Assembly: GCA_038058635.1 (NCBI GenBank)
Contig: JBBUAP010000002.1
Coordinates: 20,948-84,947 of the forward strand
DNA: 64,000 bases
DNA from: Patescibacteria group bacterium
Lineage (GTDB): Bacteria > Patescibacteriota > UBA1384 > 2-12-FULL-50-11
Direction: 5' to 3'
Shown here: in pieces, positions 7,391 through 55,360 of the stretch
How the letters are laid out: every line of letters starts with the position of its first letter
Numbering within the stretch: position 1 is the first letter of the stretch
The notes under the pieces: model-generated
What the model was told of the DNA's origin: nothing
Database searches by the model: none
What the model saw: only the letters and a program-made list of their open reading frames with translations
Program-made: the position numbers and the translations under genes

Positions 7391-7475
7391 AAGGGGAGGA
7401 TTAATCCTCCCAAGATTCCTTCATTCTTAAGTCTTAATTCCTAAATCGTAAATCTTGCTCTACTATTAGTAGAGA

Positions 7476-9110: not shown

Positions 9111-9150
9111 TCCTTACTTCAGACTTCAGCCTTTAGACTTTAGACTTCTG
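9111..9150. repeat. solo 3'-arm of the AGACTT-word element
   Basis: cttacttcagacttcagcctttagactttagacttctg, between tatD and the CvpA-CAP gene. Confidence 0.5.
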
Positions 9151-10139: not shown

Positions 10140-10272
10140 GTTTTAGTAAAAACCTTCTTACTTCGCGGCTTGCAGCCGCCTGGCTTCAGCGAGAACCAGG
10201 GGGCTAATTTGCGAAGCCGCCCCCTAAGTTCTCGCGCTCTTTACCCCCGCACGCTACCCTTTGGGGAGAGGT

Positions 10273-10325
10273 GAAAAACCGCTCGCTGACCTGCTTTTGA
10301 TGGGTCATGGCTCGCGGTTTTTCGG
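10273..10325. repeat. 53-nt conserved hairpin element (copy A), shaped like a bidirectional terminator
   Basis: gAAAAACCGC-tcgctgacctgcttttgatgggtcatggctc-GCGGTTTTTc. A 10-bp outer stem and an inner TGACC/GGTCA stem. Lies between convergent genes. Confidence 0.6.
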
Positions 10326-10410
10326 TTAGTTAGGATAAAAGAAGGGCCGGGCGAGACTTGCGTTCCGTCCGGCCTGATGAACCAAGATAGTGTTCTTGAA
10401 TTGAGACCCC

Positions 10411-10845: not shown

Positions 10846-12144
10846 ATGTCACGGGTGGCGATGTTAATGAGTGGGGGAGTAGATTCTTCGGTTTCGGCCG
10901 CGCTTTTAAAGGAGCAGGGCTACGAAGTGATTGGCTTCTACATTTTAGGGTGGCTTGGCACACCGGAATTTCCGTGTCCGTGGCAGAAAGAGGAGAAGGA
11001 TGCCCGGGCCGTCGCCGATTTGCTTGGTATTCCATTTCACACCATCAATCTGTCGAAAGTTTACGAGCGTGAAGTAATTGACAGGTTCTTTGCCGGCTAT
11101 CAGGCCGGGGTAACACCTAATCCGGATATTTTATGTAATCGAGAGATTAAATTCAAAGCTCTCTGGCAGGCGGTCCGGCAGTTTGAGTGCGATTTCTTGG
11201 CAAGCGGGCATTACGCCCGTTGCCAACAAGTTCCAAGTCTCAAGGCTAAAGTCTCATTTGTCGCTGGCGCTCGCTTTTCACCGCCTCCGCCAGTTGGCGG
11301 AAGGCGATCGGTTCAAAGTAAGGCTCAAGTATCAAGTATTAAATCAAATGACAACCATCCACACTTCAGACTTCAGACTTCAGACTTAGAGCCTTCTTAT
11401 CCAGCTATTTTCAAGCCCGCGGATAAGGAAAAGGACCAGACCTATTTTCTCTGGGGGATTGAGAAGGCGATGTTGCCGAAAATCATTTTCCCTCTCGGCG
11501 AGCTGACCAAGCCGGAAGTTCGCCAACTTGCTAAGAAATATAAGCTCCCGACTGCTACCAAGAAGGATAGTCAGGGGATCTGTTTTGTCGGGCCACTGAA
11601 AGTTCGGCAGTTTCTCGCTTCCAGAGTCAAAACCAAACCTGGCGATGTCTACTTAACTGACGGGCGGAAAGTGGCGACTCACGAGGGCGTTGAACTCTAC
11701 ACCATCGGCCAGCGATTAGCCGCCGGTTCGGTCGACTGGACAGGCGATGTCCCGCCGCTGTTCGTGATCGCTAAAGACATTACCAATAATCGTTTGATTG
11801 TCGGCGCCGATTCCCAAACATTCGGCATCAAATTAACGGCGGGCTCGTTGATTTGGCTGTGCGACTCACCCTTCGATTCCGCTCAGGGTGGCTTTCACCA
11901 CGAAATTGTGGCGAAAGCCAAAATCCGGTATCGTCAAGAAGATGAAGCCGTTCACATCCGCCAAGTTAACGCCAAATTATCAGTTGAATTTGTCAGGCCT
12001 GTCCGCGCCCTTACGGCCGGTCAATCAATCGTTTTCTACTCAACTGAAGGACAATTACTCGGCGGCGGAATTATCGAACTAGTACCAGAGCAAGATGAGA
12101 CAGTTCAACAACTTACCAAGGCTCTCGACCAAACCAAAATTTAG
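10846..12144 (+). CDS. mnmA: tRNA-specific 2-thiouridylase MnmA, carrying a roughly 55-aa in-frame insertion
   Basis: PP-loop SGGVDSS, CNREIKF, GHYAR, DQTYFLW and the C-terminal beta-barrel. The segment between GHYAR and DQTYFL is about 50 aa longer than in canonical MnmA and is encoded by a repeat element (see repeat at 11232). Confidence 0.88.
   Translation: MSRVAMLMSGGVDSSVSAALLKEQGYEVIGFYILGWLGTPEFPCPWQKEEKDARAVADLLGIPFHTINLSKVYEREVIDRFFAGYQAGVTPNPDILCNREIKFKALWQAVRQFECDFLASGHYARCQQVPSLKAKVSFVAGARFSPPPPVGGRRSVQSKAQVSSIKSNDNHPHFRLQTSDLEPSYPAIFKPADKEKDQTYFLWGIEKAMLPKIIFPLGELTKPEVRQLAKKYKLPTATKKDSQGICFVGPLKVRQFLASRVKTKPGDVYLTDGRKVATHEGVELYTIGQRLAAGSVDWTGDVPPLFVIAKDITNNRLIVGADSQTFGIKLTAGSLIWLCDSPFDSAQGGFHHEIVAKAKIRYRQEDEAVHIRQVNAKLSVEFVRPVRALTAGQSIVFYSTEGQLLGGGIIELVPEQDETVQQLTKALDQTKI
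11232..11395. repeat. AGACTT-word palindromic element (MITE/RPE-like), copy inserted in-frame in mnmA, inverted relative to the intergenic copies
   Basis: ccaagtctcaaggctaaagtctca...gcgctcgcttttcac...ggttcaaagtaag...cacttcagacttcagacttcagactt matches the reverse complement of 13285..13427 arm-for-arm and core-for-core, plus an extra 28-nt GC hairpin. Confidence 0.7.
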
Positions 12145-13284: not shown

Positions 13285-13427
13285 CAAGTCTGAAGGCTAA
13301 AGTCTAAAGTAAGTCTTAATTATCAAGTTTCAAGTAAATAACACTTGATACTTGTACTTACTTTGAACGAAGTGAAAAGCGAGCGCTAGAGACAAATCAG
13401 ACTTCAGACCTGAAGCTTTAGACTTGT
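13285..13427. repeat. AGACTT-word palindromic element, intergenic copy 1 (12 nt after the ctpA stop)
   Basis: 5' arm caagtctgaaggctaaagtctaaag. Conserved core tacttactttgaacgaagtgaaaagcgagcgctagagac. 3' arm cagacttcagacctgaagctttagacttg. The arms are imperfect inverted repeats. Confidence 0.7.
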
Positions 13428-13477
13428 CGGTAAAATGATGGGTTGCTTATTGCGGTCATATTACCGATGATAAACGT

Positions 13478-19406: not shown

Positions 19407-19792
19407 TGTCTTTCTTGCGTTGGCTTTTTGGTATCGGGAAAACGACGAAGGCCAAAATTGATTGGCTTGAAATCGAATCTCGACAGAGGCAGATCGACGC
19501 CATAGCGGCCCAAAACAACCAGCTGGCTTTTAAGCAAACGATTATCGAGTCAGACAAACTGATTGACTCGATAATGAAGAATTTAGCAGCGGGAGCAACT
19601 TTTGCTGATCGGCTCAAGGCGCTCCGACCCAAATTCCCCCGCGGGTCTTACGACCAGCTCTGGAAAGCTCATATCAAACGGAATGAATTGGTTCACGACA
19701 ACGGTAGTTTTGTGGCTGATTGGGAACTCTCGACTCATATGCGGACATACAGAGAGATCGTGTCGGTGTTGAGAGGAATTAGCTTAGGATGA
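19403..19792 (+). CDS. hypothetical helical protein with an Rx4H (KRNELVH) motif, possibly HEPN-like
   Basis: 129-aa ORF inserted between gatA and gatB. Contains R-N-x3-H near the C-terminus, the HEPN RNase motif pattern. Confidence 0.35.
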   Translation: MMSFLRWLFGIGKTTKAKIDWLEIESRQRQIDAIAAQNNQLAFKQTIIESDKLIDSIMKNLAAGATFADRLKALRPKFPRGSYDQLWKAHIKRNELVHDNGSFVADWELSTHMRTYREIVSVLRGISLG

Positions 19793-19794
19793 GA

Positions 19795-19905
19795 AAATCC
19801 CAAATCCCAAATCCCAAATCCCAAACAAAAAACAAACTCCAAATCTCCAAATATTTGGATAATTTGAATTTCGGTAATTGGGATTTGTTTGGTGCTTGGG
19901 ATTTT
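19795..19905. repeat. long imperfect palindrome built from AAATCCC / GGGATTT words
   Basis: (aaatccc)x4...caaactccaaatctccaaat | atttggataatttgaatttcggtaattgggatttgtttggtgcttgggattttggtgattggagttt. Roughly a 50-bp imperfect stem inside the gat operon, just upstream of gatB. Confidence 0.6.
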
Positions 19906-19910
19906 GGTGA

Positions 19911-21272
19911 TTGGAGTTTCCGATGAGTCAATACAAATTGACCATCGGCTTGGAGGTTCATGTTGAACTAAAAACTAAAACAAAAATGTTTTGTGGTTGT
20001 GCCAACGATCCTTTTGACTCAAAACCCAATGTTAACGTTTGTCCGGTCTGTTACGGCCTACCTGGGTCATTGCCACTATTAAACAAGGAAGCGATTAGGC
20101 TGACAGTTGAATTGGGCCAAGCTTTAAACGGCCAGATTGCCCCGGCTACTTTTTGGGCGCGAAAGAATTATTTTTACCCCGATCTGCCGAAGGGCTATCA
20201 GATTTCTCAATCTACTGCGCCAATCGTCGAGCATGCCAGTATTGAAATCGATGGTGTCAAACATAATATTCAACGGATTCATCTGGAAGAAGATGCAGGC
20301 AAGTCGGTTCACCAAGCCGACCAATTGGCTTCACTGGTGAATTTTAATCGTGCCGGGGTGCCACTCATGGAGATGGTGACCGAACCAGATTTCCATACGG
20401 CCGAAGACGCCAAACGCTTTTGCCAGGAAATTCAACGAATTGTTCGTGCGCTCAATATTTCTGACGCAGATATGGAAAAAGGCCAGATGCGCTGTGAGGC
20501 CAATATATCAGTGTCAAAAACAGAAAAACTTGGCGAAAAAGTTGAGGTCAAAAATATTAATTCCTTTCGAGCTGTTGAGAAAGCCATTACTCACGAGTAC
20601 GAGCGACAAACGGAATTGTTAGACAAAGGAGGGTCTGTTACACACGAGACTCGTACCTGGGACAGTATTGCTAGCAAAACAGTATCTATGCGCTCCAAGG
20701 AGACCAGCGCCGACTACCGTTACTTTCCTGAGCCAGACTTGCCGATCGTAGAGATAGAGGTTGGGGCGGTAAAAAGTGCGCAGCTTCCGGAAGATCGACG
20801 TCGAGCACTGGAGGCGATTGGTACTCCAGCGGCGATCGCTCAATCTTTGGTAGATAAACAACTCGACAGTAGAGTACTGGTAATCAACAACCGAGAGCCC
20901 GAGTTAACTAAAGAAGCGGCTCATTTGATGTTAGAGTCGACGGCCTTCGCTAGTTTGGATCTTGAAGATCAGACCAAGCTCTTAAGCGCCAAGAAGTCGG
21001 GCGGTTGGACAAAAGATACCCTCGCCGTCGCGATGAAAGAGATCGGTATCGGCAAGACAGCCGAAGAGGTAATCGCTACCTACTCCGAGAAGTTTGTACT
21101 GGAACCGATTATTGTTGAGGCGATCACGGCCAACCAACCAGCTGTCAATGACTACACCGCAGGCAAAGAGAACGCTCTCCACTTCTTGGTGGGTCAGGTG
21201 ATGGCCAGAACTAAGGGTAAGGCCAATATTAACGAAGTTCGAACTCAATTGAAGGATATTCTCGACCGGTAG
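19911..21272 (+). CDS. gatB: Asp-tRNA(Asn)/Glu-tRNA(Gln) amidotransferase subunit B
   Basis: KLTIGLEVHVEL, CPVCYGLPGSLP, and a GatB/YqeY C-terminal domain. Confidence 0.9.
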   Translation: MEFPMSQYKLTIGLEVHVELKTKTKMFCGCANDPFDSKPNVNVCPVCYGLPGSLPLLNKEAIRLTVELGQALNGQIAPATFWARKNYFYPDLPKGYQISQSTAPIVEHASIEIDGVKHNIQRIHLEEDAGKSVHQADQLASLVNFNRAGVPLMEMVTEPDFHTAEDAKRFCQEIQRIVRALNISDADMEKGQMRCEANISVSKTEKLGEKVEVKNINSFRAVEKAITHEYERQTELLDKGGSVTHETRTWDSIASKTVSMRSKETSADYRYFPEPDLPIVEIEVGAVKSAQLPEDRRRALEAIGTPAAIAQSLVDKQLDSRVLVINNREPELTKEAAHLMLESTAFASLDLEDQTKLLSAKKSGGWTKDTLAVAMKEIGIGKTAEEVIATYSEKFVLEPIIVEAITANQPAVNDYTAGKENALHFLVGQVMARTKGKANINEVRTQLKDILDR

Positions 21273-23677: not shown

Positions 23678-24331
23678 TGGGCAAGCAAAGCAAAAGCGGT
23701 CTCTGCGGGCTAAATCCTGTTCAACAGTGACCTTGTGGTTCGGTAGGGCGGATTGAAGGAGCTTCTGAACTCGCGGACCGTGGGTGTCGTCTATTTCTAA
23801 AGCAACTAAGCTTCGCTTATTGAGGTACGGGCCAACTTGCGCGCAAAACCGTCTGATCCACTTCAAGCCGTCTCTACCAGCAATAATGGCATCCTTTGGC
23901 TCGAAATCTCGAACCTGACTTTCGAGAAATCTCCAGCGAGCGGCCGGAACATAGGGCAGATTAGCGATTATTAAGTCAAATTTACCTTTGATCGGCTCAA
24001 ACAGATTACCGCTCTGAAAAGTTATCTCCACTTGATTCGTTTTGGCGTTTGCTCTTGCCGTTTCAAATACCGTTAATGATATATCCGTCGCCTGTACCAC
24101 GGAATTAGGCAATAGCTTTTTCAAGGTGATTGCTATCACGCCCGAACCTGTCCCAACATCGAGAATTCGTGGGTGGTCGGAAAGATATTTTTTTACCAAT
24201 ACAACCGTTTTCTCCACTAGTTGTTCCGTTTCTGGACGGGGGATGAGGGTATGCTTATTGACGACGAAATCGTAACCGTAGAAGTTAGCAGTTCCTTCAC
24301 GATAAGCCCGTGGAGTAGAATTAAGAATCAT
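23669..24331 (-). CDS. prmC: release-factor glutamine N5-methyltransferase PrmC/HemK (short form)
   Basis: SAM motif LDVGTGSGVIAI, NLPYV (NPPY-type), located immediately downstream of prfA. Confidence 0.8.
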   Translation of the reverse strand: MILNSTPRAYREGTANFYGYDFVVNKHTLIPRPETEQLVEKTVVLVKKYLSDHPRILDVGTGSGVIAITLKKLLPNSVVQATDISLTVFETARANAKTNQVEITFQSGNLFEPIKGKFDLIIANLPYVPAARWRFLESQVRDFEPKDAIIAGRDGLKWIRRFCAQVGPYLNKRSLVALEIDDTHGPRVQKLLQSALPNHKVTVEQDLARRDRFCFACPTK

Positions 24332-24400
24332 GAATTTAGAATTAAGAATAATTGGATCATCTTCTCCCTAATCTTAATTCCCGATTCTAGATTCTTAATT
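24330..24400. repeat. inverted repeat tagaattaagaat ... attcttaattcta between prfA and prmC
   Basis: 13-bp perfect arms separated by about 45 nt. The AATTAAGAAT word is reused. Confidence 0.55.
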
Positions 24401-25282
24401 CTTCTCGGCTTCGGCGAAGCCGAGATTTGCTTCTTGGAGAGATTCAACTATTTGCTCAATAGCACCATCCATTATTCTTTCAATATTGTGCCAGGATTTA
24501 TTGATGCGATGGTCAGTCACCCGGCTTTGGGGAAAATTGTAAGTTCGAATTTTGTCACTTCGGTCGCCGGATTTGATCATGGCGCGGCGAGTATCGCCGA
24601 TATCTTGGTTTTGTTCGGCCCGAGCCGCCTCCCAAAGTTTACTGCGTAAGACGGCCATCGCTTTGGTTTTATTTTTCAGTTGTGATCGTTCATCTTGGCA
24701 GGCGATGACGATGCCAGTTGGAATATGGGTGATTCGAACGGCCGAGTCGGTAGTGTTGACGGACTGGCCACCAGCGCCGCTGGAGTGGTAAACATCAATC
24801 CGTAAATCGCCCGGGTTAATATGGACATCAACATCTTCGGCTTCAGGCATTACAACGACTGAAGCGGCCGAAGTGTGAATGCGACCAGACTTCTCGGTTT
24901 TTGGGACGCGCTGGACTCGATGTACGCCACCCTCGAACCGCAAAGCGGCGTAAGCCCGAGGTGATTTAACTAGCATTGTGGCCGATTTTACCCCGCCAAT
25001 CGAATTATTACTTTCGTCAACTAATTCAATTTTCCAACCCTGTTGCTCGCTGTAGCGCTGGTACATTCGGAGCAATTCAGCGGCAAAAAGCTCGGCTTCA
25101 TCGCCACCCGAACCAGAACGAACCTCAATAATAGCGTTGCGCTGGTTTTCCGGCTGGCTCAAATCAACCTGCCGGCGCAATCTTAAAATCTCTTCGCGAG
25201 CCAATTCCTTAATGTCTTTGTCTTCCGTCTGCTCAAAAAGTGTTTCGGCTTCTTTGAGTTGACGCAACATTTCTTTGTCCAT
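24395..25282 (-). CDS. prfA: peptide chain release factor 1 (short N-terminus)
   Basis: GGQ motif (SGAGGQSVNTTDSAVRITHIPTGI) and an RF1-type tripeptide region RVQRVPKTEKSGRIHTSAASV (PxT). Confidence 0.8.
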   Translation of the reverse strand: MDKEMLRQLKEAETLFEQTEDKDIKELAREEILRLRRQVDLSQPENQRNAIIEVRSGSGGDEAELFAAELLRMYQRYSEQQGWKIELVDESNNSIGGVKSATMLVKSPRAYAALRFEGGVHRVQRVPKTEKSGRIHTSAASVVVMPEAEDVDVHINPGDLRIDVYHSSGAGGQSVNTTDSAVRITHIPTGIVIACQDERSQLKNKTKAMAVLRSKLWEAARAEQNQDIGDTRRAMIKSGDRSDKIRTYNFPQSRVTDHRINKSWHNIERIMDGAIEQIVESLQEANLGFAEAEKN

Positions 25283-25497: not shown

Positions 25498-25707
25498 ATG
25501 AAGAAAGAGATTCATCCCGAATATTTTCCAGAGGCCAAAGTCACATGCTCATGTGGCAACACTTTCACGCTTGGCGCCACTGTTTCAGAAATGCGGGTGG
25601 AAATTTGCTCTAACTGCCACCCACTCTACACCGGTAAAATGAAACTTGTTGATACTGCCGGCCGAGTTGATCGATTCAAAATGCGACAAGAAAAAGCCAA
25701 AAAGTAA
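25498..25707 (+). CDS. rpmE: 50S ribosomal protein L31
   Basis: [23 protein letters not shown]...[10 protein letters not shown] zinc ribbon. Confidence 0.88.
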
Positions 25708-25710
25708 TGC

Positions 25711-25800
25711 AAAACTCAAAGCTCAAAGCTCAAAACTACAACTCAAAACCAACTAGTTTTAAGTTAGTAGCTAAAATTTTGACTTTTGACTTTTGCGTTT
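25711..25800. repeat. imperfect palindromic word repeat (CTCAAAG / TTGACTTTT words)
   Basis: gcaaaactcaaagctcaaagctcaaaac...ctagttttaag...aaattttgacttttgacttttgcg. The arms are approximately reverse-complementary. Lies between rpmE and rpsB. Confidence 0.5.
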
Positions 25801-25831
25801 TAACTTATCTTCAAACCGGAGGTTTTTACTA

Positions 25832-28505: not shown

Positions 28506-29596
28506 TGATCATTACCCTCCTCGTTTTTCTCGCCGTACTTGGCTTTATGGTATTTGTTCACGAGTTAGGGCATTTTCTAGTCGCCAAAAAGAGCGGGGTT
28601 ATGGTCGAAGAATTCGCCTTCGGCTTTCGACCAAAACTTTGGAGTAAAAAGATTGGCGAGACAACTTACGCCATCAATCTAATTCCGTTAGGTGGCTATG
28701 TAAAGATGTTTGGGGAAGCTGACGGTAAAACCGGTCCCAGGTCGTTTAAGTCTCAAAAACCGTTTTCGCGCTTAGCAATTCTTGTGGCTGGAGCAACAAT
28801 GAATCTGCTGATGGCCTGGATTATTTTTACAATTTTGTTTATCACGGGCTTTCAGCCTTTTGCCCCTAACGCGGCAAGAAACCCGTTCATTTCCGAGCGA
28901 CCGACTCCCACTATTGCCAAAATTGTCGAGGATAGCCCAGCCGAAATTAGCGGATTCCAACTCAATGATCAAATATTAGCCGTCAACGGCCAACAACTAG
29001 ATGGCGGAGCAGGTTTCGTTGAGGAAATACGCGCTCTGAATGGCCAAAGCGCCACCGTCACAATCAGACGCGGCGAGGATACGTTAGATTTAACGGTCAC
29101 GCCGAGGGTAAATCCACCAACCGGCCAAGGAGCGATTGGAGTGGCTATCGGCCAAACCGGAGAGGTCAGATCTCTTTGGTACAAGGCGCCGGTTGCCGCC
29201 CTTTACGAAACAGGAAGGATAATTGGAATCTCGGCAGTTGGATTTGTGGATTTTATAAAGAATTTTGTGATTAAGCAGGAAGTGTCCGAAGATGTCACAG
29301 GAATCGTCGGCGTCGGAGCGCTGACCGGTGTGGCTAGACGAATGGGTTTTGAATACCTGGCTCAATTAGTCGCGTTAATATCAATCGGCTTGGGCGTAGT
29401 TAACTTGATGCCAATTCTGCCGCTTGATGGTGGCCACATAGCGGTCTTGGCCTACGAGAGAGTCACTCGACGACCACTCACCGAGCGACAGTTCTCCATT
29501 TTTGCAACGGCTGGATTAGCTTTCATCTTGCTAATGTTCGTTGTCGTCACCCTTAAGGACTTTATACGCTTCGATGTCTTCGGGAGGTTGTTCTGA
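28505..29596 (+). CDS. rseP: RseP/Eep-like site-2 protease (M50) with PDZ domain
   Basis: HELGHFLVAKK (HExxH) in TM1, a PDZ region, and C-terminal TMs with an LDGGH motif. Confidence 0.85.
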   Translation: MIITLLVFLAVLGFMVFVHELGHFLVAKKSGVMVEEFAFGFRPKLWSKKIGETTYAINLIPLGGYVKMFGEADGKTGPRSFKSQKPFSRLAILVAGATMNLLMAWIIFTILFITGFQPFAPNAARNPFISERPTPTIAKIVEDSPAEISGFQLNDQILAVNGQQLDGGAGFVEEIRALNGQSATVTIRRGEDTLDLTVTPRVNPPTGQGAIGVAIGQTGEVRSLWYKAPVAALYETGRIIGISAVGFVDFIKNFVIKQEVSEDVTGIVGVGALTGVARRMGFEYLAQLVALISIGLGVVNLMPILPLDGGHIAVLAYERVTRRPLTERQFSIFATAGLAFILLMFVVVTLKDFIRFDVFGRLF

Positions 29597-30819
29597 TGAG
29601 GTTGAGCAATTTCTACACCAAAACCCGTCGCTCGATGGCGGCGCAAGATTCAAAAAACGCCTACTTGCTCGAGAAAGCCGGCTATATTAGCCAGGTCGCG
29701 GCTGGGGTCTACGCTTTCTTACCGCTTGCGGTGCGCTCACTCCAAAAGATCGAAACTATCGTTCGAGAAGAAATGAACGCTCTTGGTGGCTCGGAAGTTA
29801 TATTTTCCGCTCTCCAACCGAAATCCACCTGGGAAAAATCCGGGCGCTGGGAAGATAAAAACTTCCGCCAGATTGTTTATCTAGACCCAGAAGCCGATAT
29901 GACTTTTGGGGCGACGCACGAGGAGCCGATGACCATTGCCCTTAAACAAAGCGTCCAGTCGTACCGCGATCTGCCAGTTATTCTTTTTCAGTTTCAAACT
30001 AAGTTTCGCAAGGAATTGCGGGCCAAATCCGGCCTGCTACGAGGGAGAGAGTTTCGAATGAAAGACCTATATAGCTTTCACCCAGACGAAGAATCTCATC
30101 ACAAATTTTATGAAGACGCCGCCAAGACCTACTTAAAAGTATTCGAGCGACTAGGACTCGATGCTTATCGGGTCAAAGCCAGTGGCGGTGTATTTACCGA
30201 TGAATTTTCTGACGAGTTCCAGGTAATCTGTGAAACTGGCGAGGACGAGATACTGGTTAACCACAAAACAAAGACTGGTTTCAACAAAGAAGTTGAGGAT
30301 AAGTTGAAAGAAACGGACAAGAAGAAACTGGAGCGAGTGAAGGCCATCGAAGTAGGGAATATTTTTCCTCTTGGAACCAAGTATTCTGACGCTTTTGACC
30401 TAAAATACCTCGATGCCTCCGGCGATCGACAATCGGTTTGGATGGGTTCGTACGGCATCGGCATTAGCCGGTTACTTGGGACGCTGGCGGAACTTTTCAA
30501 CGACGAGCACGGCCTAAAACTACCGAGTCAAGTCGCGCCGTTTGAAGCAGTTGTTATCAATCTTACCAGCTCTAAAACAGGCGAGAAGATTTACAGCGAT
30601 CTTACGGAGCAGGGTGTGGAAGTGTTACTCGATGACCGAGACGAGATGGCCGGAACAAAATTGGTTGATGCCGACTTAATCGGCTACCCAATCAGGTTGG
30701 TTTACAGCGCCAAAACGGCGCAGGATGGCAAAATCGAGATTAAAGAGCGCGGCTCTGGCAAAGTGACGCTGGTTAATTTGGAAGATGTTGTCGGGCGGGT
30801 GCAGAAACTACTGTCGTAG
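29596..30819 (+). CDS. proS: prolyl-tRNA synthetase (class II, short form)
   Basis: Class II motifs. N-terminus MRLSNFYTKTRRS...YLLEKAGYISQVAAGVYAFLPLAVRSL is typical of ProRS. C-terminal anticodon-binding domain. Confidence 0.85.
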   Translation: MRLSNFYTKTRRSMAAQDSKNAYLLEKAGYISQVAAGVYAFLPLAVRSLQKIETIVREEMNALGGSEVIFSALQPKSTWEKSGRWEDKNFRQIVYLDPEADMTFGATHEEPMTIALKQSVQSYRDLPVILFQFQTKFRKELRAKSGLLRGREFRMKDLYSFHPDEESHHKFYEDAAKTYLKVFERLGLDAYRVKASGGVFTDEFSDEFQVICETGEDEILVNHKTKTGFNKEVEDKLKETDKKKLERVKAIEVGNIFPLGTKYSDAFDLKYLDASGDRQSVWMGSYGIGISRLLGTLAELFNDEHGLKLPSQVAPFEAVVINLTSSKTGEKIYSDLTEQGVEVLLDDRDEMAGTKLVDADLIGYPIRLVYSAKTAQDGKIEIKERGSGKVTLVNLEDVVGRVQKLLS

Positions 30820-30832
30820 GCTAAAAAATCTT

Positions 30833-30990
30833 AAGTCTAAAGGCTCAAGTCTAACTTAAGTTCCAAGTAATAATTTCCAAGTAATGAGCCCCAAATACTT
30901 AATACTTAAAACTTGTTACTTACTTTGAACGGAGTGATAAGCGAGCACTAGCGACAAATTAGACCTTAGACTTGCCACTTTAGACTTGAC
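30833..30990. repeat. AGACTT-word palindromic element, intergenic copy 2 (about 12 nt after the proS stop)
   Basis: Arms taagtctaaaggctcaagtctaac / agaccttagacttgccactttagacttgac. Core ttacttactttgaacggagtgataagcgagcactagcgac is about 90% identical to the copy-1 core. Confidence 0.7.
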
Positions 30991-34184: not shown

Positions 34185-34427
34185 CTTAATAGCATATCAA
34201 AAGTTAACTATGTCCGGTTCCATCGGCAAAGGTTTGCGACTGCGTCGCGGCTTTTTTGTGAGGGTGGAGGGGGTAAAGCCAAAGGAACCCGGGGCTTCGG
34301 CATTCTTTCAGAATAGGCCTCAGCCCGTTCGACCGGTTCGAACTAAAGCAGTTTAGTTCTCTACTGCGGTCTCACCCCTAGCCCCCTCACACCCCATACC
34401 CTGTCACGCTTCTCACAGAGGTAAGGA

Positions 34428-34480
34428 GAAAAACGGCTCGCTGACCTGCTTTTGATGGGTCACGGCTCGCGGTTTTTCGG
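34428..34480. repeat. 53-nt conserved hairpin element (copy B), 51/53 identical to copy A
   Basis: gaaaaacggctcgctgacctgcttttgatgggtcacggctcgcggtttttcgg, with about 30 nt of additional upstream similarity (cacgct...gaggt..ggag). Lies 45 nt upstream of pgk. Confidence 0.6.
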
Positions 34481-34524
34481 CTAATCATAGTGGGAATGAG
34501 AATGACAGCTGGTATATTAAGAAT

Positions 34525-38787: not shown

Positions 38788-38816
38788 GATCTTCAAAGGC
38801 CTGGCCTTTGAAGATC
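38788..38816. repeat. REP-like perfect palindrome (type a) between the giant gene and the downstream operon
   Basis: gatcttcaaaggcc-t-ggcctttgaagatc, a 14-bp stem. Same family as 53806 and 54546. Confidence 0.8.
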
Positions 38817-38874: not shown

Positions 38875-41800
38875 TCAGAATGTCCCGGTCAATATATATA
38901 GTACCTCTGTTGTATACGGATTGGCTTCTTGAAGTTCGCTAACCGAGACTTTGTGGGTGATGGTGAACGCTTCGTTGGTGACAGGACCGCTGGTGCCGTC
39001 AACGGCGGTGGTGTGATCGGCGATGATATCGCCAAAGGCCGTCAGACTTAACGGTGCGTAGAGCGTGCCGGTGCTAAACTTGTTGACACCCTGAATGGTG
39101 GTGTCGTCCGAGGTGTAGCCGTAGCCACAGTTGGTGCTAGGCGTACAAGTACCACCTGGCCAGGCGCCGGGTGAGGCGTAGGTGCCACCCTCAAACATCG
39201 GAATGGTTTTGACGCCTTTAGTCAGGAGGGAGCTAGCGTATTGGCGAATAACATAACCGCCGTAGGCGTTAGTGCTGGAGGTCAAGACCAAGGTCTTGGA
39301 GTCGCTCCGATTATTACCGTTATTGAGGTTGGCGAAGGTAATTGTAACCGCGCCGAGCGACAAGCTAATCGTTGGCAGAACCGACTGGCCGTTCGATGAA
39401 GTGACGCCCGAAGTATTGGTGGCGTTGTCGACCGCTCGAACATTGAAGAAGTAATTCTGGTTGGTTCGCAGAATCAAGCTACCCGATGTGACCGATTCGG
39501 TCGTCGAGTTATCGGTCCAGGCCTTGATATCGGTCCCACCGCTAGTCGTACCAATAGAGTATTGATACTTATTCAACCCGGAAACGGTGCAGGTGAAAGC
39601 ATCCCAGTTAGCCGAGACGGCAGTGAGCGACCCATCGTTATATGAAGCGTCAACATCTTCGACCGTGCCATCATAGATACTTGAGCCGTAAGTGCAGGCG
39701 GTCGTGTCAACGCCAAAGTCACGATTGGCCTCTGGATTGGCGCCAAACGAGATCCAACCAGAGTAGCCACCAAAGGTATCCTTAACTCTGGCTTGCCAGT
39801 GGTACTCGTTGGCATCAGTGATTCCGGCAATAGTAAGGACGACCGTTACTGGTGTGCCAGAGTAGGCGACACCCGAACCGCAGGAATCCTCGGTGTTGGC
39901 AAAAGCATCGGCGATCAGATCTTTCTCGACACACAAGTACAAAGTGTCGGGATTGTCGGTATCCGAGGCGGTGGCGGTGAACTTAACTGAAGTCTCGTTA
40001 GTCCAATCCCCAACGGCCAAAACCGTGTCGTCGGTCTTCTTTTGGGCCAGGGCAGAGGGATCATTCGGGTTGGTGTTAACTTGCCAGTGGAGGAAACCAA
40101 GACTATCGCTACCGCCGTCTCCGGTGTCGGAATCGGAGGCTTCACAATCGCTCCAGCCGGTACAGGTGGAAGGATACAAGGCCCAGTAGTTGCCAGCCGC
40201 TGGAGCGCCGGTGGCTGTTTGAGTAACGGAGTATTCTGGGACATTGTCAGAGGCCTCAAGGAAGGTCATATTGTCCCAAGTTTTGGCTGGAGCACCGGTG
40301 CCTATTAACGAGCCGTGGACTGTGATGTAGGTATCGGTTGCCCCGACATTCTGGAAGTTATCGAATTCGCCGTCATCAAGATTGGTCAGCGTCGCCCCAG
40401 ATTGAAGGTCGAGGCCGTTACCGCCGCTGGTACCGCCAAGGTAACTAAATTTGTAGTACTGGGCGTCGATTGTTCCGGCCACATCGAAGTGGTAGCCACC
40501 GGAGGCCCCACGAGTAACAGTGGAGAGATTAGTTGAAGTGGTTTGGCCTTTCAGCTCGAGTGTTTTGCCCGAGCCAACGGTGAAGATGTCGCCATCCTGC
40601 ATCATCGTCATTGGCTTAATGGTCGAGGTAGAGTTGTCGGCGTCAAAGGCAGCGAAGGTGTAAGTGGCGTTTAGAGCGTAGGGAGTGGCACCACAGTCAA
40701 CGGTGAACTTGGTATTAACGGCACCAGTCGAATCAGTGAACAATGTCCCGGTCGTTAGATCACCAACATCGGTACCGTTCCGGTAAACATCCATTACCGC
40801 TTGGCTAGTGACACAGCTGGCTCCGACACCGGCGGTTTTGGTGACAAGCATGTAAGCATACGGACCGGCCGACAAGTCAGCCGGAGCCGACAGGTCGTAA
40901 GCAAGGTTCGTGTCTTCGGTGCCAGTCCCAGAATACCCGTGCGCCGTAACCGATTTTTCCCACAAATTGTTGGCGTAGTTGAATTTGTCAGTACTCTCCA
41001 CTTGTGGCGTTTCGGCTGTATCGGCCGGAATGGCATACTCGCCCCAGAGCTTGGTTGCGCCAGCCGAGGTGTCGTGCTTGCGAGAAACAATATATGCCCC
41101 AGCAACAGTTACCCCAGTCACTTCAGTAGAAGAAGAGAGAGTGGTGTTGTAGAGAGAAAGGGTGTGAGCGTTAGTTCCGGCAAAAATAATGTCCGCCGTA
41201 GTATTGGCAGTTGCGCCATAGACATCATTAATGATGACATTGCCGGTTGAGGCAGTATTGTCGCTAACATATAAACCATACGACTGACCGCCGCTCTGAT
41301 TTCCGATTAATGTGTTGTTGTTAGAGATACTAAGACGAAAGCCCCAGCTGCCGTTACCCGTGGAAGTATTGGAACTTAATATATTATTACTGGAGCTGAC
41401 ATTCAGGAGAAAACCAGATGAAATATTGCCGGTGGCAGAGTTGCTCATTAGGATATTGTTGGTGGAAGTAGTGATAATAAACCCATATAGACTGTTGCCA
41501 ATAGCGGTATTAGATGTCAGGGAGTTATTTGAGCTAGAGTCGATAAGGAAACCGTAGTTAACATTGCCGGTGGAGGTATTAGATGTCAGGGTGTTATTGT
41601 TGGCGCTGGAGTCGATACGGAAACCGTAGGAGGCGTTGCCAGTGGCGGAATTGGAAGTCAGGGTGTTATTGGCGCTGGCGTTGAGATAAAAGCCAGCAGT
41701 AGTATTACCTATAGCCGTATTGCTCGTCAGGGTATTGCTATTGGAGCTGACCTGAAGGTAGAAGCCGTAGCTGGTATTACCCGAAGCGATATTGTTAGAC

Positions 41801-44800
41801 AAGGTATTGCTGTTGGCACTGCCGTTGAGATTAAATCCATAGAGAGTGTTACCAGCTGCCGAGCTGTTAGTGATACCCTTAGCGTTAGCGGTGTTGTTGT
41901 TGAGGGAGGCGGACAGTCGAGCGCCACGGTGGCCACTTCGTAAGCGCGATCGGTCAATGGTCACACCCTCGCTGGCGTTGGCGCCGTTGACAGAGTCGAA
42001 TGTTACCCCAAATTTTAAGCTAGCATTGCGGCCTAGATCACAGACATCGGCGTAATTCATAACTGTTTCCGAACCAGCGTTGGCATGAATATAACTTTCG
42101 CCAGCCTCATCATTCGTTGCGGTACAGGCAACGCCGTCTTCGGCGGTGACATTGGCGTAGTCATAAATTTCAAAATTATCTCCAGGTCTAACTCCGTCAG
42201 AGATATCTACCGTATCTCCGGAAGTGAAACCGGAGAAAACATCGGGGGACTCAACGACTTTCAGAAGATCGTTGGTACCGGTACAAGAGGCATCGTCATT
42301 AGCCGAGTCAACAATTTGGAAGTAGCCCTTGGTACCGGTGAAGTCACGCATATACGAGCCAATTTTTTGATTATCAGCGGTGATCGAGTCGGGAATACAG
42401 ACACTCATTATGCCGTTGTTGTTGGAGAGAGTCTTACTAGCACTAACGACACTAGCGGTTGAGGTATCGGCGCGGGTGATGGAGTCGTGGGTGCCGGTAT
42501 CGCACTGGGCATCGTCAGTGGTGGTGGCGGTAATCGCGTAGATCTGACCGATGGCTAGACCGCTCGTTGTTCGAACATGTTTGCTAGTGTAGCCAACTGA
42601 GAAATCTGCATTAGCACAGATTTTTGTTTCGCGGTTGTCGTAGTCGGTAATGGCAGTGGAAGAAGTGGCAGCTAGTGAGAGGGCACCGGTGACATTAAGT
42701 TTGCCAGTTGAGGCGACTTCAACACCGGTGTCAGATGCGGTGGCACTCGATTTAGGAATTAGTTTCAAGATTCCGTTTTCGTTTATCGTTAAGGTGCCTT
42801 GGCCTGATCCTGATGAGGCCCCAACATCAACAATGCAGTTAGCGCATTGAGTAGAAGTATCTTTGTTGACTTGGAGGGTAATCGTACTGCCTTCAGCCAG
42901 TGCGTCCATCGTTTGCAAAATTGCAGTTTGGTCAGCGGTTGTGGCGATGTCAATCCCGCCATAAACCAACAAGTTGTCGGCGTCGCCGTTTCCGACAGTA
43001 ACCGTACCGTTACTAACTACCAATGTATCCGCTGCCGGAGTACCGGCTGAAGTATCCACCAACATCGGATCCTGGATCGTCCATGCTCCAGCAACCCCGT
43101 TAAAGATGACTTTGAAGAAGGCCGAAGTACCGTTTAGAGTTCCGGAGAGAGTGTTACCGGAGTCAGTGGCGTTGAAAGTGACAGTGCCAGAACGAGCGGT
43201 GAAGGTGCCGATGTTACTGTAGTTCCCGCCGATCGTTAGCCCCCAGTTGGAACCGGAGACAGTGTCTAATGTTGCCGGCACATCAATGGTGAGATCGTTC
43301 GTCACGGTCGTATTTCCCTCAAGATCGTAGGTCTCGATACAAAAAATATTCAAGCAGCCAGTATTTAAATTATAGTAAGTCGCAACTTGAACCGTTGTAT
43401 TACCTCCAGCGTTATTACCCCAGAAGCTGAAAGTAGAGGTGGCGGGAGTTAAGACTGCGGCCGGCGAAGCTAGCAGTTGGAACGGATCGCCGGCAGTACC
43501 ACTTAAAATCCAGGTGCGGTTACCGGCATTGAGAGTTGTTGTCGCTCCAGCGGCATCACCAGAGGCGCCGACCAAAAGGATTGAGGATACTGTGATTCCA
43601 CCAGAACCTCCAGTCTGGGTAGTTACGGTGAACGGACTAGAGGCGTGAGAATTCGAGAAAGTGAGACTGACGAAAGTCCAGGCATTAGAGCCACTAGTGG
43701 TGCCAAAATTTTTACTCGCCCCCACCCGTTGAGTAAAGAGACTCGAACCGCTCATTGTAATCGCCCCAACTCCCGTGGCACTGCCGTTGACGGTCACATC
43801 AACCCCGCCGCTCATCGTCCCACCGGCATTAGACAAATCGTTGGCAACTTGCAGTGCTGTCGTGCTGAGAGATAAGATACTGGCCCCAGAGTGAGTGAGA
43901 TTATAGAACTGCTTAGTACTACCAGTACCGCCAGTAATGACCGTTTGAGTACCACTAGTGCCGGCAAAATCAACCGTACTGGTGTCGGCGTTGAATACAG
44001 CGGCATTAGAGTTGGTCCAATTGCCCTTAACCGTTAAATTGGCGGCGCCCATAGTCAGAATAGCAGTGGTAGTAGTGAAGTCGATATTACCATTGACGGT
44101 GACAGTTTGACCGTTGAGGTTGGTAATATTCGCAAGACTACAGCAGCCACCAAGTGACATATTGCCAGTGAAAGTCGTAGTGCCCTGGAATATAATACTG
44201 TAGGTACTTGGTAATTGATTGACGAATCCGGAGTTATAGGTATAGGCAGGAAAATTGGTGTTAGCGGATCCCCCAAAGATGTAGATTTGCCCGTTGCCGG
44301 TTCCCCAAGTTCCCGAAAGAGAAAGGGGGTTTGTCGGAGGGGACTGTAAATAGAATGTTTTAGAGTTCAAATCGAAAGTACCAGCCCCTAATGTCAAAAC
44401 ATTATCTATACCGAACGATTGTAGCATCTGAGTGGTCTTGCCACCGGCTTGGCCGACATTGAGGTTGTAAAAACGAGGTTCATACGTATTTGTCACCCCG
44501 GTCGTTATTGTTTTAGTGCCAGCTCCGTCCATTATTACTGTCGATGTTCCTTCAACGATACTTAAGCTATCTGTCGCCACCGCCGAGGTATCCCAGTTGC
44601 CGGAAACGGTAATCGTTGAGGCCCTTTCGGTCAGTGACCAAGTACCGGCGTTACCAGTCAGGTTTCCACCAATAGTTAGCGCATAGTTAAAGGTGGTATT
44701 TGTATCGAAAGTGCCGTTAGTAATATCAAAGTTATTAGTAACGCTCATTGCGTCTTGCAATGTCCAACCCCCACCAACCCCATTAAACACAAGGTTGTAA

Positions 44801-47800
44801 AAACTCTGCCCGTTGGAGGTAATGGTTTTGCCAGTGGCGACAGCAGTCATATTAACCGTTGATGTTCCCGGATTGACATTGACGGTGCCTGTTCCATTTA
44901 AGAATTTAGTACTTCCATAAATATTGAAGGTAGAAGTCTGTAAGTTAAGCTGATTCGAAGTCCCACCGTTACTTACCACATAAAGTGAGTCACCAGTTGA
45001 GGTCAGGGTGACCGTGCTTGAACCAAAGTTGTGCGTAGTATCTCCTTTATAAGCCGTCGACGAGTTGATACCCATATAACTGGCATTGATGGCATAATTT
45101 TGAGTATTAAATATGTATCCGGTCAAACCGGTTGTAGCTCCGGTACGAACACCATTAGTTGTAGTTAAATCGCCACCTAGCTGAAGGACAGAATTGTTAC
45201 CACTCGATCGATTATTTAAATCGAGTAACCAGGAGCCGTAATTTCCTCCGGCGACTGTGTTAGTAATTGAGGCCGAGTTATTGATAAATGCCATATTGGT
45301 ACTGCCAGTAATTGTGGTGGCGCTGGCGAATACAACTGATGAACCGGTCGTCGTCCTGTATAAATCGATATAATTCTGTCCTGCACCGGCTACCGTACCG
45401 CCATTGAAGGTGAGCGTCCCATTGTTAAGTCTAAAATCCGCACCAGTTAATGTAGTAGTAAATCCTGTATAGCCAATAGACAAGTTATAGAAGTCGTAAC
45501 CCGATACCGTGGTAATGGTGCCAGTTCCATTAGCCGTAACTGTCGAAGTGCCATAAACAAATTTCTCGCCTGTATCCGTATAATGTCGGCTGACTGTAAT
45601 AGTCGAGCTCCCCGCCGTGTAGCTAACTCCCGCGGTATTGGCCAGCGTAAAGTCTCTCGTTACAGTTAGGGCTAAGTTGTTGGCTGTTACGGCGCCGTTG
45701 GTAACAGTGAAATCGTTGGTGGCGGCGACAGCATTGCTGTAAGTCCAACCACCAGCCACACCATCAAAGGTTAGGTTGTAGAACGAACTTGCACCGGTCA
45801 TTGTCCCAGCTAAGGTTTTGCCCGTAGCAGTGGAAGTGAAGGTAGTGGTGTTTGATGCCGAGGTAAAGGTGCCAGCATTGTTGTAAGAGCCGCCGATCGA
45901 AAGAGCATTACCACCCATACTAAGGGTGCCGACTATATGTAGGTCTCCGGCCAATCCAGTGGTGACGGTTCCACCCGGAGTGAAGGTCTTACCAGTTGTA
46001 ATGTGGAGCGCTTTACCGGCCGTCACACTTAAGTTTCCTGTCGTCACCGTAAAGAGCATATCGGTAGCGTTCTGATCGATGTCGTAAAGATCTAGTCCCG
46101 TATTTGTTTGCGGTCCAGCGTTGTCGTGTCTAACTGCAACTTGGTCGATGTAAATGTCGACGCCGGTTTCAGTAACGGCATTAGAAAGAGTAACGGCATT
46201 ACCCTTACTGGCGGAAGTTAAGTAGATCGTGACGGTCTGTCCGGCCGTTGGGGTTATTGCCAAGTAAACGGTGTAGGCGGCGGTGGAGGCAGAACAGGTA
46301 GCGGTGGCGGCCGATCCACCGTTGACCCTAGCGGTGATGATGGCGGTTGAGCCATCGCACGGCCCACCGTTACCAGAGGTGCCGATGGTCGATTCGTTCG
46401 TTAAGTAGACGATACCCTGGATACTAATACTGGAAGAGAAGTGTAAGAAGCCATAAGTATCTGCTCCGCCGTCACCGGTATCGGAATCAGAAGCTTCACA
46501 GTCCGTCCAGCCAGTACAGGTCGAGCCGAAGAACGACCAGTAGTTCCCAGCCGCTGGAGCGCCGGTGGCGGTTTGGGTGACGGTGTACTCTGGGACGTTG
46601 TCGGATGCTTCGAGGAAAATCATATTGTCCCAGGTCTTGGCTGGAGCGCCGGTCCCGATCAATGACCCATGAACCTTTATGTATGTATCTGTTGCGCCAA
46701 CATTCTGGAAGTTGTCGAACTGACCATCATCCAAATTAGTTAGCGTTGCCCCGCTTTGCAGATCCAAGCCATTTGCCCCACTGGTTCCACCAAGATTACT
46801 AAATTTGTAGTACTGGGCGTCAATGGTTCCAGCGACATCGAAATGGTAGCCGCCAGTGGCGCCACGAGTCACAGTTGTCAGGTTAGTGGCGGTCGTTTGG
46901 CCTTTCATCTCTAAAGTCTTTCCGGACCCAACCGTAAAGATGTCACCGTCAGTCATCATCGTCATGGGTTTGATGGTTGAAGTGGAGTTGTCGGCGTCGT
47001 AAGCAACAAAAGTGTAAGTAGCATTCAAGGCATACGGGGTGGCACCGCAGTCAACGGTGAATTTAGTGTTAACAGCCCCAGTCGAGTCGGTAAACAATGT
47101 CCCGGTGGTTAAGTCGCCAACATCAGTACCGTTACGGTAGACATCCATCACTGCTTGAGAAGTCACACAGCTGGCTCCGACACCAGCGGTCTTGGTAACA
47201 AGACGGTAGGCGTACGGGCCGGCCGACAAATCAGCCGGAGCCGACAAGTCGTAGCTCAAATTAGTATCTTCGGTGCCGGTGCCAGAATATCCGTGAGCGG
47301 TCATGGACTTCTCCCACAAATTGTTGGCGTAGTTGAATTTGTCAGTACTCTCCACTTGTGGCGTTTCGGCTGTATCGGCCGGAATGGCATACTCGCCCCA
47401 GAGCTTGGTTGCGCCAGCCGAGGTGTCGTGCTTGCGAGAAACAATATATGCCCCAGCAACAGTTACCCCAGTCACTTCAGTAGAAGAAGAGAGAGTGGTG
47501 TTGTAGAGAGAAAGGGTGTGAGCGTTAGTTCCGGCAAAAATAATGTCCGCCGTAGTATTGGCAGTTGCGCCATAGACATCATTAATGATGACATTGCCGG
47601 TTGAGGCAGTATTGTCGCTAACATATAAACCATACGACTGACCGCCGCTCTGATTTCCGATTAATGTGTTGTTGTTAGAGATACTAAGACGAAAGCCCCA
47701 GCTGCCGTTACCCGTGGAAGTATTGGAACTTAATATATTATTACTGGAGCTGACATTCAGGAGAAAACCAGATGAAATATTGCCGGTGGCAGAGTTGCTC

Positions 47801-53805: not shown

Positions 53806-53834
53806 AATCTTCAAAGGCCAGGCCTTTGAAGATT
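53806..53834. repeat. REP-like perfect palindrome (type a), abutting the stop of RAYT-like gene 1
   Basis: aatcttcaaaggcc-a-ggcctttgaagatt, a 14-bp stem. Confidence 0.85.
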
Positions 53835-53835: not shown

Positions 53836-54522
53836 TTAATCAAGAGTCAAATGCTGGATTACCTCGAGATCGTCCTGTGCTTTGGCGTAGTCTTCGATGA
53901 AAAATTGATAATTACGACTGGTAGATCGTAGATCCCTCTTATCTTTAGCGGCAAATAACCCAAGAGGAATCCCTGGGTCTAGCCAAGGATTTTCGCGTCG
54001 TTCTAAGTAGTTCGCATATGAACAGTAGGGATAGTCGCGAAGTTCGTCTAGGGAAACGCCAAGATCTAAGGGGTTTAAGTTAATATAGCGCGATAAATGT
54101 GCTAATTGCTCATCGGTTTTTACCAGCACCGCCTTATACCTTCCTTGGAATAAACTACCGACTCGTTCGTAGCGCTTATTGAAGTAGACGCAATATCGAG
54201 ATGATAAGGACTGCAAGAAATCTTTCATTGCAGTCATATTGCTTTGATGAACAAGAAGGTGGAAATGGTTTGGCATTAAAGCGAATGCTTCAAGTGTTAT
54301 TACATCACCGTAGTTTCGTCGAGAATAATAATCTCCGCTCGTCTTGAGCTGGTCTTGCTTGGCATCGTTGAGAATCGGCTGGGATAGGTACTCTCTCAGA
54401 TAATTCAAAAAGACTTTATAGTCCTGAGGAGAGGCGAATATCTCCCTTTTTTCAACACCCCGATTATAGACATGATAATGGCCGTGTTCGACATATGTCT
54501 TTCGTGAATTTTTCTGAGGCAT
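53836..54522 (-). CDS. REP-associated tyrosine transposase-like protein (IS200/IS605 TnpA-like HuH Y1 family, COG1943-type), copy 1
   Basis: HuH motif in MPNHFHLLVHQ. C-terminal helix GSLFQGRYKAVLV...LSRYINLNPLD with the conserved Tyr, comparable to HVDYIYINPVKHG of RAYTs. N-terminus GHYHVYNRGVEKREIF. Flanked on both sides by palindromes. Confidence 0.75.
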   Translation of the reverse strand: MPQKNSRKTYVEHGHYHVYNRGVEKREIFASPQDYKVFLNYLREYLSQPILNDAKQDQLKTSGDYYSRRNYGDVITLEAFALMPNHFHLLVHQSNMTAMKDFLQSLSSRYCVYFNKRYERVGSLFQGRYKAVLVKTDEQLAHLSRYINLNPLDLGVSLDELRDYPYCSYANYLERRENPWLDPGIPLGLFAAKDKRDLRSTSRNYQFFIEDYAKAQDDLEVIQHLTLD

Positions 54523-54545: not shown

Positions 54546-54578
54546 CCAATCTTCAAAGGCCTGGCCTTTGAAGATTGG
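54546..54578. repeat. REP-like perfect palindrome (type a), 24 nt upstream of the RAYT-1 start and 5 nt after the PEBP stop
   Basis: ccaatcttcaaaggcc-t-ggcctttgaagattgg, a 16-bp stem. Confidence 0.85.
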
Positions 54579-55317: not shown

Positions 55318-55360
55318 AAGTACCACACCATAAAGGCCAGGCCTTTATGGTGTGGTACTT
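55318..55360. repeat. REP-like perfect palindrome (type b), overlapping the stop codon of RAYT-like gene 2
   Basis: aagtaccacaccataaaggcc-a-ggcctttatggtgtggtactt, a roughly 21-bp stem. Same AAAGGCC-N-GGCCTTT core as type a. Confidence 0.85.

Follow-up and report, generated by a model that had tools for sequence, protein, structure and literature searches.

An AGACTT-word palindromic repeat in-frame within mnmA of a groundwater Patescibacteria bacterium, at a loop recurrently filled in related lineages

Introduction

Rickettsia palindromic elements (RPEs) are palindromic repeats that lie in-frame in housekeeping genes at fold-compatible positions, according to the account of Ogata et al. (2000) given in the review PMC10969869. 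A comparable case is described here from a 64,000-nucleotide stretch of DNA (termed the window) of a Patescibacteria group bacterium, covering positions 20,948 to 84,947 of the forward strand of contig JBBUAP010000002.1 (GenBank assembly GCA_038058635.1). In this ultra-small groundwater bacterium the mnmA gene, encoding tRNA 2-thiouridine(34) synthase, carries an in-frame copy of a dispersed palindromic repeat whose arms are built of heptamers containing the word AGACTT. To our knowledge, in-frame palindromic repeats in essential genes have been described largely from Rickettsia, with a few enterobacterial and cyanobacterial cases. Like an RPE, the element is a dispersed palindrome of ~150 bp that is present both between genes and in-frame in a housekeeping gene, has no transposase of its own, resides in a reduced-genome host and extends the protein at a surface point that the fold can accommodate.

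Other described systems share further features with the element. Bacterial MITEs, short for miniature inverted-repeat transposable elements (Correia/NEMIS, ERIC, BOX/RUP/SPRITE and cyanobacterial Nezha) are likewise small and lack coding capacity; they are bounded by terminal inverted repeats, and their transcripts form stable hairpins. Most of them lie at the ends of genes and a few in-frame inside genes, and they are nested or clustered with other repeats. Repetitive extragenic palindromes (REPs) and REPINs, which are mobilised by the REP-associated tyrosine transposases (RAYTs; Y1 HUH enzymes), are also hairpin-forming inverted doublets at gene 3' ends without target duplications, and the window encodes two RAYT-like genes. 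The short tandemly repeated repetitive (STRR) sequences of cyanobacteria are heptanucleotide tandem repeats and, as with the arrays described here, they are short, mostly intergenic, occasionally within open reading frames (ORFs) and of unexplained origin and spread. The TAACTGA repeats of Beggiatoaceae, Cyanobacteria and Bacteroidetes (PMC4679880) are alike in the same respects. Finally, TIGR arrays have been reported from Patescibacteria. Their unit is roughly 36 nt, and they were rejected as a match by comparison with that length, as the inverted arms of the elements here consist of only 3-5 heptamer units each.

A full-text literature search yielded, within the literature searched, no description of such elements in Patescibacteria or the wider candidate phyla radiation (CPR). 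What is newly found here is the word-variable, recurrent filling of one MnmA loop across a CPR clade.

Results

An in-frame repeat within mnmA

A first-pass annotation, made from the letters of the window, had noted that the MnmA encoded here is about 60 aa longer than canonical enzymes. This was borne out, as residues 128-188 (61 aa) face 9 residues in solved MnmA structures (PDB chain alignment). The bounds of the additional DNA were set codon by codon against an insert-free close ortholog (locus L019, protein P0006; loci and orthologous proteins of other genomes carry such L and P numbers below), giving 57 extra codons. The interval first proposed, 11232-11395, was right as to location, the exact extra DNA being 11230-11400. 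The features of the gene, the element and its relatives in the window are as follows.

10846 to 12144, plus strand: mnmA (tRNA 2-thiouridine(34) synthase), an intact 432-aa ORF carrying the insert (ORF list)
11230 to 11400, plus strand: in-frame insert of 171 nt, or 57 codons (VPSLKAKV...SDLEPSY), from the codon comparison with L019/P0006
11220 to 11390, minus strand: AGACTT-word palindromic element segment in mnmA, from inverted-repeat pairs and alignments; inverted relative to the two intergenic copies of the window
11233 to 11256, plus strand: 5' arm in gene orientation, heptamers CAAGTCT CAAGGCT AAAGTCT, read from the sequence; base-paired to the 3' arm in the fold prediction
11256 to 11281, minus strand: conserved core GTGAAAAGCGAGCGCCAGCGACAAAT, from the copy alignment and a pattern scan
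11282 to 11306, plus strand: GC hairpin cgcctccgcc-agtt-ggcggaaggcg, a subfamily module, read from the sequence; single match in the window
11362 to 11387, plus strand: 3' arm, a (CAGACTT)x3 array translated as FRLQTSDL, from word and translation scans
13285 to 13426, plus strand: intergenic copy 1, starting 12 nt past the ctpA stop codon, with stops in all six frames
30833 to 30988, plus strand: intergenic copy 2, starting 14 nt past the stop of ORF 29596-30819
9111 to 9147, plus strand: solo array of an AGACTT-family heptamer word in the tatD-cvpA spacer

The first-pass annotation had also identified the insert as a copy, with its core inverted, of the AGACTT element found between genes at 13285 and 30833, and the alignments agree with this. 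In inverted orientation, positions 11220-11281 match 13372-13433 of intergenic copy 1 (62 nt, 79%) and positions 11363-11387 match 13286-13310 of the same copy (25 nt, 88%). Intergenic copy 2 is matched, again inverted, by 11227-11281 (30934-30988; 55 nt, 80%) and by 11308-11342 (30899-30933; 35 nt, 83%). The words themselves occur above chance, AGACTTCAGACTT with at most one mismatch being present seven times in the window against 0.08 expected, and the 21-nt core with at most three mismatches being present three times against 0 expected. The original observation is therefore confirmed as real, and the first reading of it is supported in essence.

The element and its copies

Copies of the AGACTT element were also found in at least three other Patescibacteria assemblies (L008-L011 and L016). 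The element alignment comprised eight distinct core-bearing copies, namely the three from the window, L008-L010 from a Hainich metagenome-assembled genome (MAG) labelled 'Saccharibacteria', L011 from a MAG labelled 'Berkelbacteria', and L016. Copies are 142-171 nt long and start with a left arm of three to four AAGTCTN units, after which come an inner hairpin (AAGTnnn / nnnACTT words), CTTACTTTGAACGR, an optional GC hairpin, the near-invariant core GTGAAAAGCGAGCGCYAGCGACAAAT of about 26 nt with its AGCGA-N5-AGCGA pattern and, at the end, a right arm of NAGACTT units. The entire element is predicted to form one long hairpin, in which the AAGTCTN arm pairs with the NAGACTT arm. The RNA of the mnmA copy is predicted to fold with -49.6 kcal/mol (z = -3.85) and that of intergenic copy 1 with -42.5 kcal/mol (z = -3.2). 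The alignment showed 14 outer base pairs to be retained in all eight copies, with no informative covariation.

The closest match of the mnmA copy is L009 (98% over 47 nt), rather than its neighbours in the window. The GC hairpin had been described at first as an extra of the mnmA copy. It is indeed absent from the two intergenic copies of the window, but it is no unique addition, as a shorter version of 14 nt (CCGCCAGCTGGCGG) stands at the same position in intergenic copies of L008, L009 and L004:1-100, twice in the last of these; the hairpin is thus a subfamily trait and not private to the mnmA copy. At the site orthologous to copy 1, L004 has an AGACTT hairpin that lacks the core, and the core also adjoins arrays of quite different words in L008 (~3906) and L004 (~16493), which indicates that arrays, core and GC hairpin behave as separable modules.

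Every one of the seven intergenic copies abuts a stop codon. Five of them lie 3' of a co-directional ORF, and the remaining two, L010 and L011, touch the stop of an opposite-strand gene, so that a fixed orientation relative to the upstream gene was dropped as a property of the element. Searches of Rfam gave no match to the elements at the gathering threshold and, at a relaxed threshold, only a sub-threshold miRNA-precursor hairpin on both strands. An intrinsic terminator was rejected, no stem plus T-run being predicted at the elements. A link to phages was likewise rejected, since the core pattern gave 37 matches on viral contigs, a number as by chance, and none of these lay beside heptamer arrays.

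Reading frame and protein structure

The insert is in-frame and free of stops, and the peptide first given for it is correct. Stops interrupt each of the six frames in every one of the seven intergenic copies, and the mnmA copy is open solely in the frame of the gene; in L008 and L009 the homologous frame reads ...LKAKVSFVASARFSPP... but is broken by stops. The presence of stops everywhere in the other copies, together with an mnmA copy that is open in the gene frame, fits selection for translatability and argues against splicing. The 57-aa insert peptide was compared using HMMER with 1.84 billion protein representatives, and this search of cluster representatives, in which in-frame copies may hide inside 50% clusters, returned no real homologs. 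The matches obtained were translated CRISPR arrays and a low-complexity repeat protein ('PPPPVGGRR'), and the insert peptide is therefore not a recognisable domain.

The protein itself has the PP-loop HUP domain, PRC-barrel and C-terminal barrel of the MnmA family, together with the SGGxDS motif and the two catalytic cysteines. In Pfam it matched PF03054 at 4e-67, with the match split in two (3-128 and a later stretch), as well as PF20259 and PF20258. The invariant columns of the ortholog alignment include the PP-loop SGGVDSS (aa 9-15), Cys97 and Cys246, and the sequence is 100% identical to P0001, a protein named MnmA by NCBI in a 'Patescibacteria group bacterium' MAG.

A surface-loop position had been expected for the insert, and the AlphaFold2 model of MnmA (mean predicted local distance difference test score, pLDDT, of 83, with 264 residues at or above 90) places it at the tip of a beta-hairpin, at about residues 135-138 of the E. 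coli enzyme, the pLDDT falling below 50 only at aa 134-180, between strands 125-130 and 184-189. The model superposes on the MnmA crystal structures 2hma and 2der with target-normalised TM values of 0.87-0.89, and Foldseek gave E-values of 1e-35 to 1e-39 for the same structures. On the basis of the model, the insert probably forms a disordered loop at the beta-hairpin tip in the PP-loop domain of an otherwise intact MnmA fold.

Loop variation among MnmA orthologs

The segment between the GHY and KDQxY motifs is 23-29 aa long in 75 of 118 orthologs and 30-80 aa long in the other 43, the longest being that of the window (80 aa); the loop of P0119 is 78 aa. Most of the 43 expanded loops encode peptides that read as translated heptamer arrays of differing words. 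The words were read from DNA at the fetched loci only (L001-L006 and L057), where the inserts are either heptamer arrays or palindromes with array arms, and array translations agree with the predicted peptides of 7-aa period. The mnmA loop inserts of these loci are as follows.

L001 and L003: word CTCAAAA, peptide LKTQNSK
L002: word CAGCCAT, peptide AISHQ
L004: word GCCAGTA
L005 and L057: GAAAATT-type word, forming a palindrome
L006: word CGAAATY, peptide EIRNSKF

Judging by peptide periodicity alone, PNPKSQIP-type peptides in other orthologs would be translations of (AAATCCC)n.

Neighbour-joining groups the window protein with P0002-4, the carriers of the CTCAAAA array, and the sister group includes the insert-free P0006. 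Fitch parsimony on the resulting tree requires at least 21 state changes from an insert-free root. Both the insert-free P0006/L019 and the nearest relatives P0002-4 have different content at the codons of the window insert. Furthermore, L004 has AGACTT elements between genes, yet a GCCAGTA array in mnmA, a pattern that marks the AGACTT copy in mnmA as specific to the window lineage. An alignment of orthologs had been proposed in the first-pass annotation as a means of deciding on lineage specificity, and the outcome is twofold: the AGACTT copy is lineage-specific, and the site it occupies is filled by other inserts in relatives. These inserts are unrelated to it at both the protein and the DNA level, and no homologous peptide encoded by unrelated DNA was seen in the relatives. 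The loop is a recurrent hot spot, and related lineages have gained, lost or renewed inserts there many times.

Two further observations concern the mnmA gene. Its last 50 nt (12095-12144) are also the first of the ctpA-like S41 peptidase gene downstream, and this overlap is kept in all the syntenic loci L001-L006. A second, small in-frame insert of 8 aa lies at 11869-11900 (MnmA aa ~342-352, PFDSAQGGFHH); it is common to L005, L006 and P0002, where it reads PFDSLxLAQG, is duplicated in P0002 and is missing from the nearest relatives L001, L003 and L019. In L006 the DNA of this insert (TCGCTAGCGCTTGCT) is similar to the core of the element read as its reverse complement.

Discussion

Origin of the insert

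The explanation that we regard as probable is that a non-coding palindromic repeat sits at the hairpin tip of MnmA, is translated there as a disordered loop and has been kept because the site is permissive and stops have been purged. The source would be a non-coding, hairpin-forming dispersed repeat with heptamer arms, an inner hairpin, the ~26-nt core and an optional GC hairpin, which would form one family within the heptamer-armed palindromes that are common in this Patescibacteria lineage and normally located at gene 3' ends. One copy, inverted, would have entered the turn of the beta-hairpin of the MnmA PP-loop domain and, being transcribed and translated with mnmA, would give a disordered surface loop of ~57 aa that the enzyme tolerates. 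The insert would then be selfish or neutral DNA, held open through purifying selection against stops, and not a functional domain. It may be close to neutral and may have arrived by a transposition-like insertion or by recombination into an older array, and hairpin-mediated slippage could explain the frequent precise losses.

Several points weigh against this explanation. The core-bearing copies visible in the 64-kb window number only three, and transcription and translation of the insert with the gene are what we infer. The ends of the eight copies share no direct repeat that would represent a target-site duplication, the array ends blurring the boundaries, and no transposase with matching ends was present among the window ORFs scanned. 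Unrelated GC-centred palindromes bracket the RAYT-like genes, of which two belong to the window and one to L008 (L008:900-1484). In addition, the right junction of the insert (S-Y/H-P-A-IFKPADKEKDQ; TCT TAT CCA GCT) is common to the window, L057 and L005, two loci in which the loop is filled by a GAAAATT-type palindrome.

This junction bears on a second explanation, which differs from the first only in the way the element arrived and to which we would give a substantial chance, if one short of even. It holds that the loop has turned over in situ, the AGACTT element having nested into, or recombined with, an older heptamer-array insert; as a variant, an 'insert plus flank' allele could have spread by homologous recombination between co-occurring lineages. 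A right junction in common with differently filled orthologs makes replacement of, or nesting in, an older insert as likely as de novo insertion. The inserts of L057 and L005 are 68% identical and their flanking gene is 63-67% identical, so that insert and flanks are equally diverged, implying an old, inherited insert. The left junction ARCQQ is common to the window and the CAGCCAT-array orthologs, orthologous intergenic spacers hold different words in different genomes, and pneumococcal repeats have been reported to insert into one another (PMC10969869). Against this, the likeness of the junction spans only ~13 nt plus conserved coding sequence, no trace of another word is left within 11230-11400, and the insert-free P0006 and P0016 are nested among insert-bearing orthologs in a tree whose root is inferred to be insert-free. 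The loop has possibly been refilled in situ.

It could also be that the loop has been co-opted, either for a role of the protein such as contact with a partner or with tRNA, or as an mRNA hairpin of about -50 kcal/mol that controls how the mnmA-ctpA transcript is translated or degraded. The stability of the hairpin is significant (z = -3.85), the reading frame is maintained and over a third of the orthologs have an enlarged loop. However, the inserts are unrelated between lineages and close relatives have none, while the segment is predicted to be disordered and its peptide is without homologs, and we consider co-option improbable.

Removal of the segment as an intron or intein, such that MnmA is canonical in the cell, appears very improbable indeed. 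Group I introns are indeed present in the 16S rRNA gene of this genome, but these were the only introns matched at the Rfam gathering threshold in a scan of the window, with none in mnmA; Pfam gives only MnmA and PP-loop families and no Hint/intein domain; and 171 nt is below the size of known self-splicing introns. An insert that keeps the exact frame and contains no stop, in a family whose other copies are all closed, is a pattern expected only if the segment is translated. Finally, although repeats are known to promote misassembly, an assembly chimera at the repeat, or a decaying mnmA pseudogene, can hardly be credited, since the identical 432-aa MnmA is found on nine contigs from several assemblies (ENA Hainich H43, Logan ERR3858133 and an NCBI MAG), one of them 182 kb long at 80x coverage, and the ORF is intact with all invariant residues present.

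Comparison with known repeat systems

The element, which we take to be a non-coding repeat translated at a permissive hairpin tip, is RPE-like in behaviour and MITE/REPIN-like in form. The parallel with RPEs drawn in the first-pass annotation holds for the in-frame position at a fold-compatible site. It does not extend to a shared open frame, as RPEs encode a conserved peptide whereas the intergenic copies here are closed in the homologous frame, and copies without a common open frame mean that the element cannot be filed as an RPE. Moreover, the host, a member of the Patescibacteria, is unrelated to Rickettsia, the arms consist of 7-nt words in tandem, just one core-bearing copy was seen in-frame, and elements of different words have entered or refilled a single protein loop many times. 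The likeness is a functional analogy only, drawn on behaviour rather than on sequence.

The term MITE-like fits the size, the inverted repeats and the dispersed copies; it describes a resemblance only, as no target-site duplication is recognisable at the fuzzy array ends of the eight copies, and the window ORFs scanned yielded neither a cognate transposase nor a parent insertion sequence with the same ends. In contrast to REP/REPIN sequences, the element does not bracket the RAYT-like genes of the window and L008, and its arms are AT-rich heptamer arrays, not a single REP. STRR and TAACTGA repeats differ in that several different words are present per genome here, none of them the words of those families, and in that the arrays are paired as inverted hairpin arms, some enclosing a core, and tend to follow the 3' ends of genes instead of immediately preceding start codons.

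Mobilisation of the AGACTT element by RAYT proteins was tried as an idea and rejected, the palindromes that flank the RAYT-like genes being unrelated to the AGACTT arms. The two window genes of this kind, at 53836-54522 and 55361-56026 on the minus strand, are paralogs and encode RAYT-like Y1 proteins (IS200-like / REP-associated tyrosine transposases). Each is flanked by its own perfect palindrome, AATCTTCAAAGGCCWGGCCTTTGAAGATT or ACCACACCATAAAGGCCWGGCCTTTATGGTGTGGT, in the classic REP-RAYT layout, and their NCBIfam scores of 44-49 bits are under the curated cutoff of 80. The associated palindromes lie at 53806-53834, 54548-54576, 38789-38815, 55322-55356 and 56049-56083, one of the two having a solo copy elsewhere.

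About one-third of the sampled MnmA orthologs have repeat-derived loops at one hairpin tip, which would mean that selfish repeats shape proteins even in streamlined genomes. The orthologs also offer a natural allele series, with the same site and different inserts, for study of the arrival, replacement and loss of elements. For annotation they call for caution, as a low-complexity loop that a CPR protein has in one lineage only may be a translated repeat and not a functional domain. The combination of a conserved core with genome-specific heptamer words points to a putative mobilising or binding factor.

Heptamer arrays in the window and in related genomes

Heptamer arrays are not confined to the AGACTT word. 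Further heptamer-armed or heptamer-array hairpins are located between genes of the window, and an AATTAAG-type word is among those of this group.

7425 to 7454: heptamer-array intergenic hairpin
19791 to 19915: heptamer-armed intergenic hairpin, AAATCCC/GGGATTT
24313 to 24406: heptamer-armed intergenic hairpin of another word
25705 to 25806: heptamer-armed intergenic hairpin, CTCAAAG/CTTTTGA

The words of the wider class include AGACTTN, AAATCCC, CTCAAAA, CAGCCAT, GAAAATT and GAAATTC, and a lag-7 scan showed that in L004, L005 and L006 the tatD-cvpA spacer is occupied by arrays built on other words. A second coding loop is also affected. In GatB, between ISVS and KTEKLG, heptamer arrays are present in-frame at L001:19980-20015 (CTCAAAA, +5 aa) and at L002:21108-21145 (CAGCCAT, +4 aa), and the loop is without insert in the window and in L003. 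In both L001 and L002 the word of the gatB loop is that of the genome's own mnmA loop, which shows directly that an array can spread inside one genome and reach more than a single coding loop. In metG of L005, a stretch with 7-nt periodicity was rejected as an insertion, the protein length being unchanged, and this case shows that a period-7 signal alone does not prove an insert.

A tentative and, in our view, rather unlikely proposal is that this clade contains a new class of mobile or self-renewing hairpin elements, consisting of inverted arrays of genome-specific 7-nt words, some with the core AGCGAGCGCYAGCGACA, that re-enter or overwrite a few permissive sites. If this were true, the sites would be the MnmA and GatB loops together with the same intergenic spacers, the mode of entry would be hairpin- or array-targeted insertion or templated array replacement, unlike known transposition, and new peptide segments would be continuously generated in ultra-small genomes.

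Other features of the window

A second dispersed and conserved repeat, ~100-130 nt long and closed by a GC stem-loop with a T-run after it, is present in the window at 10200-10345 and 34360-34500. It was also found at L001:2984-3115, L002:9375-9477 and L004:9264-9296, and three times in L005 (3081-3159, 19419-19475 and 9213-9248), so that it occupies differing places in several related genomes; it has no Rfam match.

The 16S rRNA gene (59871-64000) is broken by at least two group I introns, at 61105-61479 and 62392-63370, and LAGLIDADG endonuclease ORFs lie in this region at 60316-60783, 61424-62095 and 62450-63346. A giant ORF of 4647 aa extends over 38875-52818 on the minus strand and contains an internal duplication of ~6.35 kb (72-78% identity, with some blocks at 100%) as well as tandem repeats of 69-72 nt.

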